From: a phage
Sequence record: PZ179882.1
Length of the DNA: 64,000 nt
Strand: one strand, 5' to 3'
The position numbers were made by a program, and so were the translations under genes. The notes beneath the pieces were generated by a model. It was not told the origin of the DNA and ran no database searches. It worked only from the letters and a program-made list of their open reading frames with translations. Below are positions 49,959 through 54,226 of the stretch, one piece after another; position 1 is the first letter of the stretch; every line of letters begins with the position of its first letter.

Positions 49959-50429
49959 TTAATCATGTTTCCACACCCCATCGGTATTTGACCAAAGTCG
50001 CTGATTATCTGATCCTCGCCACAGCTTTTTGGTCGGAAGATTTTTCTCATACTTCCCATCAATAATAACATCAACATATTTAAGCATTTCTAGTTGTTTA
50101 ATATCTTCAAATTTATATCCTGTCCACAACCAAATGCTTTTATTGGGATAAAGATTTTTTACTGTTTGAACAATGCAATGAACAACATCTCGGTTATCAG
50201 GATAGAGAGGGTCTCCTCCAGTTATAGTTAATCCTTCTATATAATCATTATTCAAACATTCAATTAATTGTTCTAGTGTTTCACCAGTGAATGGAACGCC
50301 ATTTCTAGCGTTCCATGTTGATTTATTATAACACCCTTCACATTTATGCAAACAACCTGTAACGAAAAGAACGACCCTGCATCCAGGGCCATTCACAAAA
50401 TCGCAAGGATAAAATCTATCATAATTCAT
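49959..50429 (-). CDS. nrdG: Anaerobic ribonucleotide reductase activating protein NrdG (radical SAM)
   Basis: 156 aa; CxxxCxxC cluster (CLHKCEGC); ATG verified. Confidence 0.88.
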   Translation of the reverse strand: MNYDRFYPCDFVNGPGCRVVLFVTGCLHKCEGCYNKSTWNARNGVPFTGETLEQLIECLNNDYIEGLTITGGDPLYPDNRDVVHCIVQTVKNLYPNKSIWLWTGYKFEDIKQLEMLKYVDVIIDGKYEKNLPTKKLWRGSDNQRLWSNTDGVWKHD

Positions 50430-52243
50430 TGGTGTTTAACCCTATGCATGATTTCTTTATTTTTTCCAAGATTAAATCCGCGCTCGTTCGGATTTCCCAA
50501 ATAGCCACATGTTCTTCTTATTGTGTTCATCTTTTTAGGATCAGTTTCTCCACAAATAGAACAAACAAATCCGTTTTCAGTAGGAGTCATTTCATGGGTA
50601 CTTCCACACGTAAAACATTTATCTACTGGCATATTAACACCAAAATAATCTAAATGTTGTGCAGCATAATCCCATACAGCCTCAAGACCTTTTAGATTAT
50701 TTTTCATATCAGGAAGTTCAACATAAGAAATGTGACCGCCTGTCGCGATGAAATGATATGGGGCTTCGCGAGAAATCTTTTCAAACGGAGTAATATTTTC
50801 TTCTACTGAAACATGGAAACTGTTAGTGTACCAGCCTTTATCGGTAACATCTTTTACACTTCCATATTTTTCGGTATCAAGTTTACAGAAGCGATAGCAC
50901 AGGTTTTCAGCAGGAGTAGAATACAAGCTAAAAGCAAAACCAGTTCTTTCAGTCCACTGCTTAAGATGAGCATTCATTTTAGTTAAAATTTCTTGTCCAA
51001 TATCACGACCGACAAGAATATTCAATTCGTGAATACCAATGTATCCTAAGGACACTGAACTTCTACCGTTTTTAAATAACTCAATTATATCGTCATCGGG
51101 TTTAAGACGAACCCCGAATGCACCTTCTTGATAAAGAATAGGAGCAACAGTAGCTTTAACTCCTTTTAAGGAACTAATTCTACACATCAATGCTTCAAAA
51201 CATAAATTCATTCGCTCATTGAACAATTCAGTAAATTTCTGTTCATTGAACTGTGTTCCAATATAAGAATCTAACGCAATACGAGGAAGATTCAGTGTTA
51301 CAACACCAAGATTATTACGTCCATCAAGAATTTCATTACCAGTCGAATCTTTCCATACGCCCAAGAAACTACGGCAACCCATTGGAGAAACAGGAATAGA
51401 TGAACCAGTGATAGCTTTATTGTTCTTAGCTGAAATAATATCAGGATACATTCTTTTGCTTGCACACTCTAGAGCAAGCTGCTTAATATCATAGTTCGGA
51501 TCGTCTTTATAAAGATTAACACCCTCTTCAACGAACATAACAAGTTTAGGGAAAATAGGAGTTATCCCATCACGACCGAGACCTTTAATACGATTTTTCA
51601 GAATTGCTTTCTGAATCATTCGTTCAGTCCAGTCAGTTCCAGTACCAAATGTAATTGTTACAAAAGGCGTTTGTCCATTTGAACTAAAGAGAGTATTTAC
51701 TTCATATTCATAAGCTTGGAACGCATCGTATACGTCTTTTTCTGTTTTAGATTGGGCATAATTCAATGCATCAGCGATTTGCCATTTTTCTGCGTCCTCA
51801 ATATGTTTTGCATAGGTGCGTTTAACATAAGGAGAAAGTACTTTGTCTACATTCGCAAAAGTCGTTCCGCCGTATTGATGGGAAGCAACTTGCGCAGTAA
51901 TTTGCGCCATAATTGCAGTAGCAACGCCAATTGATTTAGGAGTTTCAATCTGTGCATTACCAAGCTTAAATCCGTTTTCAAGCATTCCTTTTAAATCTAC
52001 TAAACAGCAATTAGTAAATGGAAGAGCAGGGGAATAATCAATATCGTGGAAATGGATAATTCCGCTTTCATGCGCTTTCATAATAAAAGACGGGACCATA
52101 TTTTTGGCAATGTGTTTAGACACAATACCAGCCATAAGGTCCCGTTGAGTTGGAAAAACACGAGAATCTTTATTAGCATTCTCGTTTAAAAGGTCTTTAT
52201 TAGTTTTATGAATCAATCCTTCAATTTCTTTTTCAATTGTCAT
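50426..52243 (-). CDS. nrdD: Anaerobic ribonucleoside-triphosphate reductase NrdD (uninterrupted)
   Basis: 605 aa in one frame; C-terminal glycyl-radical motif RRTCGYLG and Zn ribbon CFTCGS...CSIC. Confidence 0.92.
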   Translation of the reverse strand: MTIEKEIEGLIHKTNKDLLNENANKDSRVFPTQRDLMAGIVSKHIAKNMVPSFIMKAHESGIIHFHDIDYSPALPFTNCCLVDLKGMLENGFKLGNAQIETPKSIGVATAIMAQITAQVASHQYGGTTFANVDKVLSPYVKRTYAKHIEDAEKWQIADALNYAQSKTEKDVYDAFQAYEYEVNTLFSSNGQTPFVTITFGTGTDWTERMIQKAILKNRIKGLGRDGITPIFPKLVMFVEEGVNLYKDDPNYDIKQLALECASKRMYPDIISAKNNKAITGSSIPVSPMGCRSFLGVWKDSTGNEILDGRNNLGVVTLNLPRIALDSYIGTQFNEQKFTELFNERMNLCFEALMCRISSLKGVKATVAPILYQEGAFGVRLKPDDDIIELFKNGRSSVSLGYIGIHELNILVGRDIGQEILTKMNAHLKQWTERTGFAFSLYSTPAENLCYRFCKLDTEKYGSVKDVTDKGWYTNSFHVSVEENITPFEKISREAPYHFIATGGHISYVELPDMKNNLKGLEAVWDYAAQHLDYFGVNMPVDKCFTCGSTHEMTPTENGFVCSICGETDPKKMNTIRRTCGYLGNPNERGFNLGKNKEIMHRVKHQ

Positions 52244-52713: not shown

Positions 52714-52755
52714 AATAAAACCCTTACCTTAAATAGATAAGGGTATTTATTATTT

Positions 52756-52932
52756 TTAAGTATTGTAAAACATTCGATGCAATCGTTTATACTGTCGAAT
52801 CATCTTTTTAGTAGGACGAGAATAGGTTCCTACGCAAGTGGTCATATGAGGGTCCGTAGAATGTCCTTTAATAAAAAGTTTCCAAACCTTACCGCCATTT
52901 AACTTTTCAGTATAAACCAATTCGGTTTTCAT
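52756..52932 (-). CDS. Small ORF (58 aa) whose C-terminus duplicates the pin C-terminus; not in ORF track
   Basis: Hand translation MKTELVYTEKLNGGKVWKLFIKGHSTDPHMTTCVGTYSRPTKKMIRQYKRLHRMFYNT; last 16 codons lie in repeat 52758-52801. Confidence 0.35.
   Translation of the reverse strand: MKTELVYTEKLNGGKVWKLFIKGHSTDPHMTTCVGTYSRPTKKMIRQYKRLHRMFYNT
52758..52801. repeat. Repeat R1 (copy of pin 3' coding end)
   Basis: 44 bp, about 5 mismatches versus 52972-53015. Confidence 0.7.
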
Positions 52933-52969
52933 TAAAATGTCCTGTCAGAAAAAGAATTTTGAGTTTTTT

Positions 52970-53455
52970 TCAAGTATTATAAAACATTTGATGCAATCGC
53001 TTATATTGCCGAATCTTTTGGTCAGAAAAAGAAATTTGAGTTTCAAGCCATTCAATGTACTCTGCGGCAGCTTGCATCAGGTTACCTTCATAGCCATCGT
53101 TATTTTCTTGCGCAGCTAATTTAGCTAATGCGTATGAAATACGTTCACCTTGAAAAGAGGCTTCAGGCTTCTGAACATCTTGGCTAGTTCTCTCTACAAC
53201 TTCTTCAATTTCGCCATTTTCGACTGATTCAGTATTCCACAAGCACCAATACGTAATTGGCTTATCGTAGATGTTAATAATCTTTCCGTCGGAAAGTTCA
53301 ATTTCAATAATTCCAGTATCAGGTTCTATATCATCTTCACATTCTTTTGCAAGTTCACGAACTTTAAAGACAGTACCTGCACTAAGTTCCGGCCAGTAAT
53401 TACACAGCCCTATATCAACACGATTAATTCTAAACCACTTATCTACTGTAATCAT
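52970..53455 (-). CDS. pin: Pin (inhibitor of host Lon protease)-like protein
   Basis: Track ORF starts at TTG; ATG 53453-53455 gives 161 aa, the size I recall for T4 PinA; position after gene 49. Confidence 0.6.
   Translation of the reverse strand: MITVDKWFRINRVDIGLCNYWPELSAGTVFKVRELAKECEDDIEPDTGIIEIELSDGKIINIYDKPITYWCLWNTESVENGEIEEVVERTSQDVQKPEASFQGERISYALAKLAAQENNDGYEGNLMQAAAEYIEWLETQISFSDQKIRQYKRLHQMFYNT
52972..53015. repeat. Repeat R2 (pin 3' coding end)
   Basis: 44 bp; adjacent 20-bp element gtcagaaaaagaa(a/t)tttgag also duplicated (52944-52963 and 53021-53040). Confidence 0.7.
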
Positions 53456-53577
53456 GTCCCATCTCCATATCAATTAAGTCATTTATCGTTGGTTCATTAT
53501 ATACTGTTTCTTCATCAGTGTAAACCGGTTCTTCCGGCTCTGGCTCTACAGTTTCCCATCTAGCCGCCCACCAAGGT

Positions 53578-53748
53578 TTAACCCCGAAGCTTATTAAGTT
53601 CTTCATAATCAATCCAGGATTCTAATCCTGATGGCAAATCAGATTCAATTTCCCAAAGAAGCTCTTCAATTTTCTGAAGACGATCTAGTTCTTCGGCTGG
53701 AATAGTAACCATTGACGGAGCTCGTGATACATTAATATCGTAAATCAT
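53578..53748 (-). CDS. Small acidic protein, 56 aa, not in ORF track
   Basis: Hand translation MIYDINVSRAPSMVTIPAEELDRLQKIEELLWEIESDLPSGLESWIDYEELNKLRG; abuts neighbouring genes. Confidence 0.35.
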   Translation of the reverse strand: MIYDINVSRAPSMVTIPAEELDRLQKIEELLWEIESDLPSGLESWIDYEELNKLRG

Positions 53749-53750
53749 AT

Positions 53751-53966
53751 TTACCCCAATTTAACCATACAATCGCCGTATTTCCACTTAGAAATAGACT
53801 TTTCACCATTAGAATAATAAACTTCGAGTTTAGCACGATTATTTTTAATTTGAATAACCTTGGCTGTCATCAAAGTTCCATACCCATAATAAACTGCAAC
53901 TTCATCACCTACATATACCGCGCTTCCGCGGTAATCATGAATATAGTCAGTTCCTTCGAGCATCAT
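53751..53966 (-). CDS. Hypothetical protein, 71 aa
   Basis: ORF track; ATGA coupling with nrdC. Confidence 0.5.
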   Translation of the reverse strand: MMLEGTDYIHDYRGSAVYVGDEVAVYYGYGTLMTAKVIQIKNNRAKLEVYYSNGEKSISKWKYGDCMVKLG

Positions 53967-54226
53967 TTAAAATATTCTCGCAGTTGGTCAAATCCACCAA
54001 TATGACTTCCATCAGGAGCAAATACCTGGGGCATTGTCAAGCCGATTTGAGTATCACGACCTAGTTTAGTCAGAAGCTCAGCAATTTTCTCATCATCAAA
54101 AACACCTTTTTCCGGCATAATGTTGATAAATTCAAACGGCTGTTTCTTCACGGTCAAAAGACGTTTTGCATTATCGCAATACACACATTTATGAATGTTG
54201 CTATCATAACCATATACTTTAAACAT
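53963..54226 (-). CDS. nrdC: Thioredoxin/glutaredoxin NrdC
   Basis: 87 aa; MFKVYGYDSNIHKCVYCDNAKRLL with CVYC redox motif matches remembered T4 NrdC. Confidence 0.88.
   Translation of the reverse strand: MFKVYGYDSNIHKCVYCDNAKRLLTVKKQPFEFINIMPEKGVFDDEKIAELLTKLGRDTQIGLTMPQVFAPDGSHIGGFDQLREYFK

Follow-up and report, generated by a model that had tools for sequence, protein, structure and literature searches.

In the Tequatrovirus (T4-like) genome of sequence record PZ179882.1, of which a stretch of 64,000 nucleotides (nt) was analysed (hereafter the window), pin and gene 49 are separated by a 58-codon open reading frame (ORF) whose 3' end closely resembles that of pin. An original prediction for this interval attributed the resemblance to a duplication of the end of pin, which would have created a small ORF with a pin-like C-terminus. 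Having compared the 49-pin-nrdC interval across T-even phages, as that prediction had proposed, we arrive at the reverse direction of descent. The small ORF is very probably an ancient, independent gene of the family DUF7279 to which the shared tail is native, pin would have received its copy of the tail through a 137-nt deletion, and the short repeat between the two genes would be a relic of the original end of pin. The genes of the locus all lie on the minus strand, and the features on which the argument turns are the following.

52756-52932, minus: DUF7279 gene, 58 codons (assigned by Pfam PF23945, phrog_3272, synteny and the ratio of non-synonymous to synonymous substitution rates, dN/dS)
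52756-52803, minus: S2, the apparent native tail, DUF7279 codons 44-58 (MIRQYKRLHRMFYNT) with the TAA stop
52933-52966, minus: R2 with an 11-nt spacer, a putative 34-nt non-coding relic (AAACTCAAAATTCTTTTTCTGAC AGGACATTTTA, then ATG)
52964-52970, minus: poly-A run of 7 A (coding strand), the last base of the pin TGA among them; the novel S1/R2 junction
52970-53455, minus: pin (PinA), fused form, 161 codons from ATG (PF10465, phrog_2167 and an alignment of 24 Pins)
52970-53017, minus: S1, the apparently captured tail, pin codons 147-161 (KIRQYKRLHQMFYNT) with the TGA stop, derived from DUF7279 codons 44-58
53017-53018, minus: deletion junction between pin codon 146 and DUF7279 codon 44, from alignments with ancestral-type phages
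53021-53043, minus: R1, native pin codons ..ETQISFSD, the probable source sequence of the R2 relic

The repeats and the small gene

The repeats themselves lie where the original prediction had placed them. The long one pairs 52758-52801, which ends the 58-codon ORF, with 52972-53015, which ends pin; 5 of the 44 positions differ, and the similarity extends to 52 nt (52750-52801 versus 52964-53015, 45/52 identical). The short one grows from 20 to 23 nt (52944-52966 versus 53021-53043, 22/23 identical). When the whole window was scanned at offsets of 30-1000, this was the only 52-nt pair with at least 45 matches, while the maximum in 20 block-shuffled control windows was 35/52 and the binomial expectation for such a pair over the window is about 5e-11. 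Read on the plus strand, the order is tail copy S2, ORF body, R2, tail copy S1 and R1. S and R are thus each present twice, in the same orientation and beyond chance, as in a segmental (partial tandem) duplication, and both are single-copy in the ancestral-type, T4-type and clean-deletion genomes described below. Relative to the ancestral arrangement, 77 bases are extra in the window, and relative to T4, 214.

The ORF that ends in S2 belongs to a Pfam family of its own. It matches PF23945 at 62.7 bits (cut-off 24.5; E = 3e-17), with residues 7-56 covering profile positions 1-53 of 53, a match that takes in the supposed pin-like tail, and it matches phrog_3272 over its full length (3.4e-34). 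Three genera have an orthologue at this position between pin and gene 49: Tequatrovirus (IME537, KIT03, JE01, HMD-9, ESh34 and KNP1), Mosigvirus (SA35RD and AV117, 59 amino acids (aa), ending ...RPTKRMIRQYKRFHRDFYNVY; the SA35RD annotation names the gene RB69ORF087c) and Dhakavirus (JS10 and dhabil, ending ...RPTKKMIRQFKRLHRSFYSTFEK). The slot is filled by DUF7279 also in Tequatrovirus phages whose pin is tail-less, and the orthologues in other genera and in duplication-free phages are 45-80% identical. The window copy has the size and position of its relatives, and it differs from them in being uncoupled from the pin stop and preceded by the relic. Measured against six ancestral-type orthologues, its dN/dS is 0.10-0.23, similar to that of the pin core (0.09-0.34). 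These patterns indicate purifying selection on a protein-coding gene, with its translation suggested by conservation, and identify DUF7279 as the apparent ancestral occupant of the slot. A de novo ORF arising from the duplication is rejected in view of the orthologues in other genera and in duplication-free phages. We also discarded two antisense ORFs on the plus strand (52777-52902 and 52937-53119), which match no family and overlap conserved genes.

DUF7279 is a very small family, with 10 matches in a word-index protein search and 9 in a full search with hidden Markov models (HMMs). Four of the nine HMM matches are long repetitive proteins of 493-1089 aa (E 1e-6 to 1e-3), and the full search returned almost no members beyond these phages and no distant relative hinting at function. 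The protein is very basic (isoelectric point, pI, 10.2). Its structure model, built from a shallow alignment with a predicted local distance difference test score (pLDDT) of 82, shows three beta-strands followed by a helix at the C-terminus (residues 42-56), and a Foldseek search of this model against the PDB gave nothing below E = 0.27 and hence no similar solved structure. The tail shared with pin corresponds essentially to this predicted helix. Mosigvirus and Dhakavirus orthologues share the motif RPTK..IR..KR.HR.FY with a second, more divergent DUF7279 paralogue of Mosigvirus (56 aa, ...RPTKRQLRKAKRSHRNFYREY), which lies directly upstream of pin (SA35RD, locus L004, 606-776; L028, 1329-1499), and the Mosigvirus pin is thus flanked by two members of the family. 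In a more distant T4-like lineage, with about 44% identity in Pin, the slot is taken by an unrelated ORF of 94 aa (L029, 1946-2230), of which a stretch, ...ETWCLITEY..., faintly recalls the YWCLWNTE of Pin.

Allele types and the tail of Pin

T4 PinA (P07068, PF10465 Inhibitor_I24) is known as an inhibitor of the Lon protease from literature cited in PMC8835725. By its sequence, the window pin is a 161-aa orthologue of this protein with the same fused C-terminus; unlike T4, which has no small gene downstream, the window keeps both the small gene and the relic. The match to PF10465 (157.9 bits, cut-off 27; 1.8e-46) covers residues 4-141 and that to phrog_2167 residues 1-146. The last 15 residues fall outside the Pin profiles, which end at 141-146, and so outside the family core; they match phrog_3272 at positions 44-58. 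In an alignment of 24 Pins, the tail is present in 7 rows, the window included, 16 have native ends, and 1 has a different short fusion. The native ends are varied: Tequatrovirus Pins of 148 aa finish in ...WLETQISFSDRAF (one in RAL), Mosigvirus Pins (136-137 aa) end earlier in ...EYLERRLS, and three distant Pins of about 44% identity end in FSSKSF, FNAKSF or FSDRGF. The extra tail of the 161-aa form is confined to a subset of Tequatrovirus. The form of T4 PinA used in Lon biochemistry would therefore be a chimera whose last 15 residues were taken from the neighbouring gene, and the absence of this tail from about one quarter of natural Tequatrovirus Pins is relevant to structure-function work on PinA and Lon.

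We read the junctions from DNA alignments, with 18 sequences in one alignment (A4) serving for the population-level analysis, and resolve four allele structures within Tequatrovirus. In the ancestral allele (...ACTCAAATTTCTTTTTCTGACCGAGCATTTTAATGAAAAC...), the TAA stop of the native pin overlaps the ATG of DUF7279 as TAATG. In the fused allele, seen in T4, RB14, REP2 and fPS-65, ...TCTGACC(G/A)A is joined directly to A(T/A)GATTC..., with 137 nt missing (GCATTTTA and DUF7279 codons 1-43) and the reading frame kept; T4 itself is of this type and has no DUF7279 gene. The fused-plus-intact allele, shared by the window, JB75, U115, FN, L14 and S2_01, runs from the fused pin (TGA) through 5-11 A and AAACTCAAAATTCTTTTTCTGAC(AGGA/AAGG/AGGG)CATTTTAATG to the intact DUF7279 gene (TAA). 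Finally, the clean-deletion allele of N2 and ime09 (...GACCGAGCATTTTAATACTTGA) has lost the whole small gene between TTTTAAT and TTTTACAAT while its pin keeps the native end. Our literature searches found no paper describing a polymorphism of the pin-gene 49 interval.

The frequencies of these alleles were estimated from BLAST summaries and a 60-row spread sample of the phage collection. The fused pin tail is present at an identity of at least 90% in about 413 records, and the fused form is the commonest allele. The window-type ORF body occurs at a protein identity of at least 99% in 112 records; the number of records with the window-type layout is put at about 112-117, and the full layout was seen in one piece in 11 of the 60 rows, taken at even steps. 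The ancestral type accounts for about 75-80 Tequatrovirus records and the clean-deletion type for about 65-75. A scan of IMG/VR with Pin gave 6 loci only, too few for a census.

Between the two genes of the window-type allele, the relic aligns base for base with the end of the tail-less pin, ...ACTCAAATTTCTTTTTCTGACCGAGCATTTTAATG, of JE01, KIT03, HMD-9, ESh34 and KNP1, and it retains the old TAATG stop/start overlap. We take R2 to be a remnant of the original 3' end of pin, as this alignment indicates, and not the point at which a module was inserted. The poly-A run at the novel junction differs in length among otherwise near-identical alleles (7 in the window, 6 in JB75, 5 in U115, 5 in FN, 11 in L14 and 6 in S2_01), a variation that is probably due to replication slippage.

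The two copies of the tail have evolved differently. The DUF7279 tail is invariant as protein in all 11 ancestral-type and window-type copies examined, its changes all being silent (CGA/CGG, CAA/CAG, AAG/AAA and the stop TGA/TAA), whereas the pin-borne copies carry amino-acid changes among phages (M/K, R/Q, H/N, R to Q and Y/F). The two copies of the window, S1 and S2, differ by 4 synonymous changes over 8.3 synonymous sites and by 2 non-synonymous changes over 36.7 non-synonymous sites. With the ancestral sequence as reference for polarity, M to K and R to Q, the two amino-acid changes, both fall in the pin copy. Such a pattern would be expected if the tail has a function in DUF7279 and, with its constraint relaxed, is tolerated on Pin. 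The suggestion that the ORF had a pin-like C-terminus does not hold, pin appearing as the recipient of a tail native to DUF7279.

Order of events and competing readings

We infer the following history. In the ancestral state, Pin would have had 137-148 aa, ending in Tequatrovirus in ...ETQISFSDRAF with the TAATG overlap onto the basic DUF7279 gene, whose C-terminal helix (...RPTKKMIRQYKRLHRMFYNT) would have been followed by the gene 49 hairpin. A 137-nt deletion may then have taken the last two codons of pin, its stop and DUF7279 codons 1-43, producing the 161-aa Pin of T4, T2, T6 and RB14 in genomes without the DUF7279 gene. The junction of this deletion shows no microhomology, which argues that the founding event was illegitimate. 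The small gene would have been re-acquired through an unequal exchange, in an A-rich stretch, between a fused genome and an ancestral-type genome, in which the fused pin end was joined to the tail-less pin just before its final codons. At the presumed exchange point, CTTGAAA is common to both partners (ACTTGAAAAT after the tail and GGCTTGAAACTC in pin). Such an exchange would yield the layout of the window: fused pin (R1 and S1), poly-A junction, relic and intact DUF7279 (body and S2). Recombination between S1 and S2 could remove the small gene once more, and the two-tail allele would thus be unstable.

Recombination between the repeats has left a trace in nature. Phage fPS-65 lacks the small gene, and its pin tail is a chimera that starts like S1 (AAG ATT CGG CAA TAT AAG) and ends like the window-type S2 (CAT CGA ATG ... 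TAC AAT ACT TAA AAATAAT). The exact chimera is unique in the phage collection, with two more records one mismatch away, and it marks the repeats as recombinogenic. In addition, the block with the small gene is 100% identical in nucleotide sequence in 5 of 5 window-type phages whose pin cores differ at a synonymous divergence of 0.07-0.22; at the distance of the most divergent pair, the ORF should show about 8 synonymous differences, and it shows 0. The block therefore behaves, at the sequence level, as a recently spread unit, unlike the fused tails, which are diverse. Most fused-only phages moreover carry CAA...TGA followed by the ancestral flank AAAATAAT and not the TAA of the window-type S2. 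Taken together, the identity of the block, the diversity of the fused tails and the TGA with its ancestral flank favour the order ancestral, fused, window type, which we regard as the probable one, if less firmly than the origin of the tail.

Several points weigh against this history. The order of its steps is unproven, and the same layout would result from a tandem duplication of the pin end with DUF7279 followed by deletion of the first body. Among the 6 ancestral-type phages examined, none has the window-type body (H24, S25, H29, TAA), leaving the donor unsampled. A crossover in CTTGAAA would leave 3 A's where 5-11 are observed, and the junction is not exactly reconstructible. The allele counts, too, fall short of a full census.

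The opposite order just mentioned is the strongest competitor, although we think it unlikely. It would begin with the tandem duplication, reach the window type by the 137-nt deletion, and reach the T4 type by recombination between S1 and S2. In its favour, the step from window type to fused-only demonstrably occurs, as in fPS-65, and the deletion junction lies at an identical position in both allele types. It needs three events rather than two, and it has to account for the CAA...TGA followed by AAAATAAT in T4, T6, RB14 and RB27, which demands either that the crossover fell within the final 4-5 bases of the repeat or that an older S2 ended in TGA. Zero diversity in the window-type block beside diverse fused tails also speaks against it, as does the distribution of the ORF body, which is found at 327 places in 326 records, twice in one record only, with no confirmed full tandem duplicate.

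A second alternative, to which we give still less weight, is that the fusion was adaptive and not just tolerated: the similarity of the two tail copies would be maintained by gene conversion or by selection for a common function, such as a target that both Pin and DUF7279 bind through the basic helix. Fusions between Pin and the DUF7279 family have arisen at least three times, the fused form is the commonest, and fused pins with a shortened tail were not encountered. Set against this are the amino-acid changes gained by the pin-borne tail and by no DUF7279 tail, the commonness of natural tail-less Pins (about one quarter of Tequatrovirus records), the fact that one third of random deletions are in frame, and a pLDDT below 50 for the tail in a Pin model that is poor overall (mean pLDDT 64), from which the packing of the tail is not deducible.

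The original prediction, that a duplication of the pin 3' end made a new ORF or that a foreign module entered between short homologies, is hardly tenable: compared with T4 alone, the window does resemble a 214-bp insertion between 52-nt direct repeats, but same-slot orthologues in three genera, a Pfam family that includes the tail, purifying selection on the ORF, the tail-less Pin as family norm and the alignment of R2 with the tail-less pin end down to the stop/start overlap all contradict it, and orthologue identities of 45-80% speak against a recent transfer from a window-type phage. That prediction had named as its refutation an ORF that is an ancient independent gene in related phages without any relationship to pin at the DNA level. 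The ancient gene was found; the DNA-level relationship also exists, in the reversed direction. From the idea of a module inserted by recombination, what survives is the partial duplication, the natural recombination between its repeats and the recent spread of the block, while the direction, the origin of the ORF and the insertion at R2 do not.

The feature is a product of ordinary illegitimate and homologous recombination in T-even phages and calls for no new mechanism. Deletions and tandem duplications between short direct repeats of T4 are familiar from the classic studies of the rII region. Comparable cases here are the loss in N2 and ime09 at TTTTAAT/TTTTACAAT, a Mosigvirus-like deletion at ACGTTT described below, and the fPS-65 exchange between the 52-nt copies; the 137-nt deletion differs in having no microhomology, and all are natural polymorphisms in many isolates rather than laboratory mutants. 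The sequenced isolates thus offer a natural series, from ancestral allele through deletion fusion and re-acquisition with a relic to renewed loss via the repeats, and so illustrate the gain and loss of small genes in T-even phages.

Mobile promoter-stem-loop cassettes of T4-type phages were reportedly described by Arbiol et al. in 2010. Like such cassettes and homing-endonuclease insertions, the block is a small early gene present or absent between conserved genes, and the nearby nrdD region carries homing endonucleases in related phages. We reject a cassette origin, as the block has no promoter-like site or stem-loop pair of its own at its flanks within 52750-52970 and its flanking repeats are coding sequence, and likewise a homing-endonuclease insertion, as the block holds no endonuclease gene or further family-matching ORF. 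At the corresponding place in phage JB75, nrdD is split and a homing endonuclease gene is present, and the T4 nrdD contains an intron with I-TevII; in mixed infections, the double-strand breaks of such endonucleases could promote adjacent rearrangements.

Expression, a possible partnership and neighbouring genes

The remaining features of the locus are listed here.

50426-52243, minus: nrdD, uninterrupted, 605 codons
52240-52713, minus: gene 49 (endonuclease VII)
52717-52747, minus: predicted hairpin between the DUF7279 stop and the gene 49 start (inverted repeat, terminator-like match and fold)
53496-53524, minus: early-promoter-like site, TTTACA-17-TATAAT, 11/12 matches (consensus match only)
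53963-54226, minus: nrdC, with three small ORFs between pin and nrdC

The early-promoter-like site upstream of pin probably drives a pin-DUF7279 transcript. In the ancestral alleles, DUF7279 is probably coupled translationally to pin via TAATG. In window-type alleles, the pin stop lies about 40 nt upstream of the DUF7279 start, and the small gene appears to be uncoupled from pin, with a predicted Shine-Dalgarno sequence, AGGA (52939-52942), in the relic 7 nt before the start. Depending on the phage, CCGAGC in the relic has become CAGGAC, CAAGGC or CAGGGC, each of which yields AGG about 7 nt before the ATG, a recurrence that suggests selection for an independent ribosome-binding site. Apart from the gene 49 hairpin, no promoter- or terminator-like site was found in 52750-52970. 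With a predicted fold of -18.2 kcal/mol (z = -3.8), the hairpin includes the late-promoter-like TAATAAATA and pairs with the start region of gene 49. It is intact in every allele type and conserved in 18/18 aligned phages. A regulatory role of the gene 49 hairpin of T4 was reportedly described by Barth et al. in 1988.

Two further fusions join Pin to DUF7279. In a Mosigvirus-like sequence (Logan SRR20302901; L028, 1501-1926), Pin has independently been joined to the final 9 codons of the DUF7279 gene that follows it (...LERR to FHRDFYNVY) by a deletion between two ACGTTT motifs, that is, at a microhomology. In two metagenome assemblies (ERZ15185091 and ERZ28615551; L031 and L032, 1201-1776), the loss of 1 nt (TATTGATATG to TATGATATG) brings the upstream DUF7279 paralogue into frame with the N-terminus of Pin, as a fused protein of 191 aa; one of the two has a coverage of about 0.7, and sequencing error is possible. 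The likeness to Rosetta-stone fusions, in which neighbouring genes with linked functions are fused in some genomes, is that adjacent, coupled genes are fused in some lineages in three independent ways; the difference is that, in the main fusion, the partner contributes no more than its last 15 codons. At pI 4.2, the Pin core is acidic, in complement to the basic DUF7279. Adjacency, stop/start coupling, the Mosigvirus paralogues on both sides of pin, the three fusions and the complementary charge together point to a possible partnership. As a speculative proposal, which we rate as improbable, basic DUF7279 (pI about 10) may bind acidic Pin (pI about 4.3), or Lon, via its C-terminal helix, with the T4-type fusion supplying this helix in cis. 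If so, the ancestral T-even inhibition of Lon would be a two-protein system and T4 PinA its natural single-chain version. The tie of this small, uncharacterised family to pin is a reason to look for an interaction.

In Dhakavirus, pin itself is rearranged. JS10 (L003, 729-1204) has pin split into two ORFs in swapped order, a 57-aa Pin C-terminal-like ORF (...AAADYIHWLEAQLRFSDEAF) preceding a 100-aa N-terminal-like one (WPEL..., FWCFW), and dhabil (L009, 728-901) has only the 57-aa C-terminal piece, beside DUF7279.

Among the small ORFs between pin and nrdC, that at 53578-53748 (minus, 56 aa) matches phrog_3402, 'antitoxin from a toxin-antitoxin system', at 2.6e-40; against the Pfam family of the T7 gp5.9 RecBCD inhibitor it scores 20.2 bits, below the cut-off of 24.5. 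The three ORFs of this block encode 57, 56 and 71 aa in the window, as compared to 49.1, 49.2 and 49.3 of T4 (51, 106 and 102 aa).

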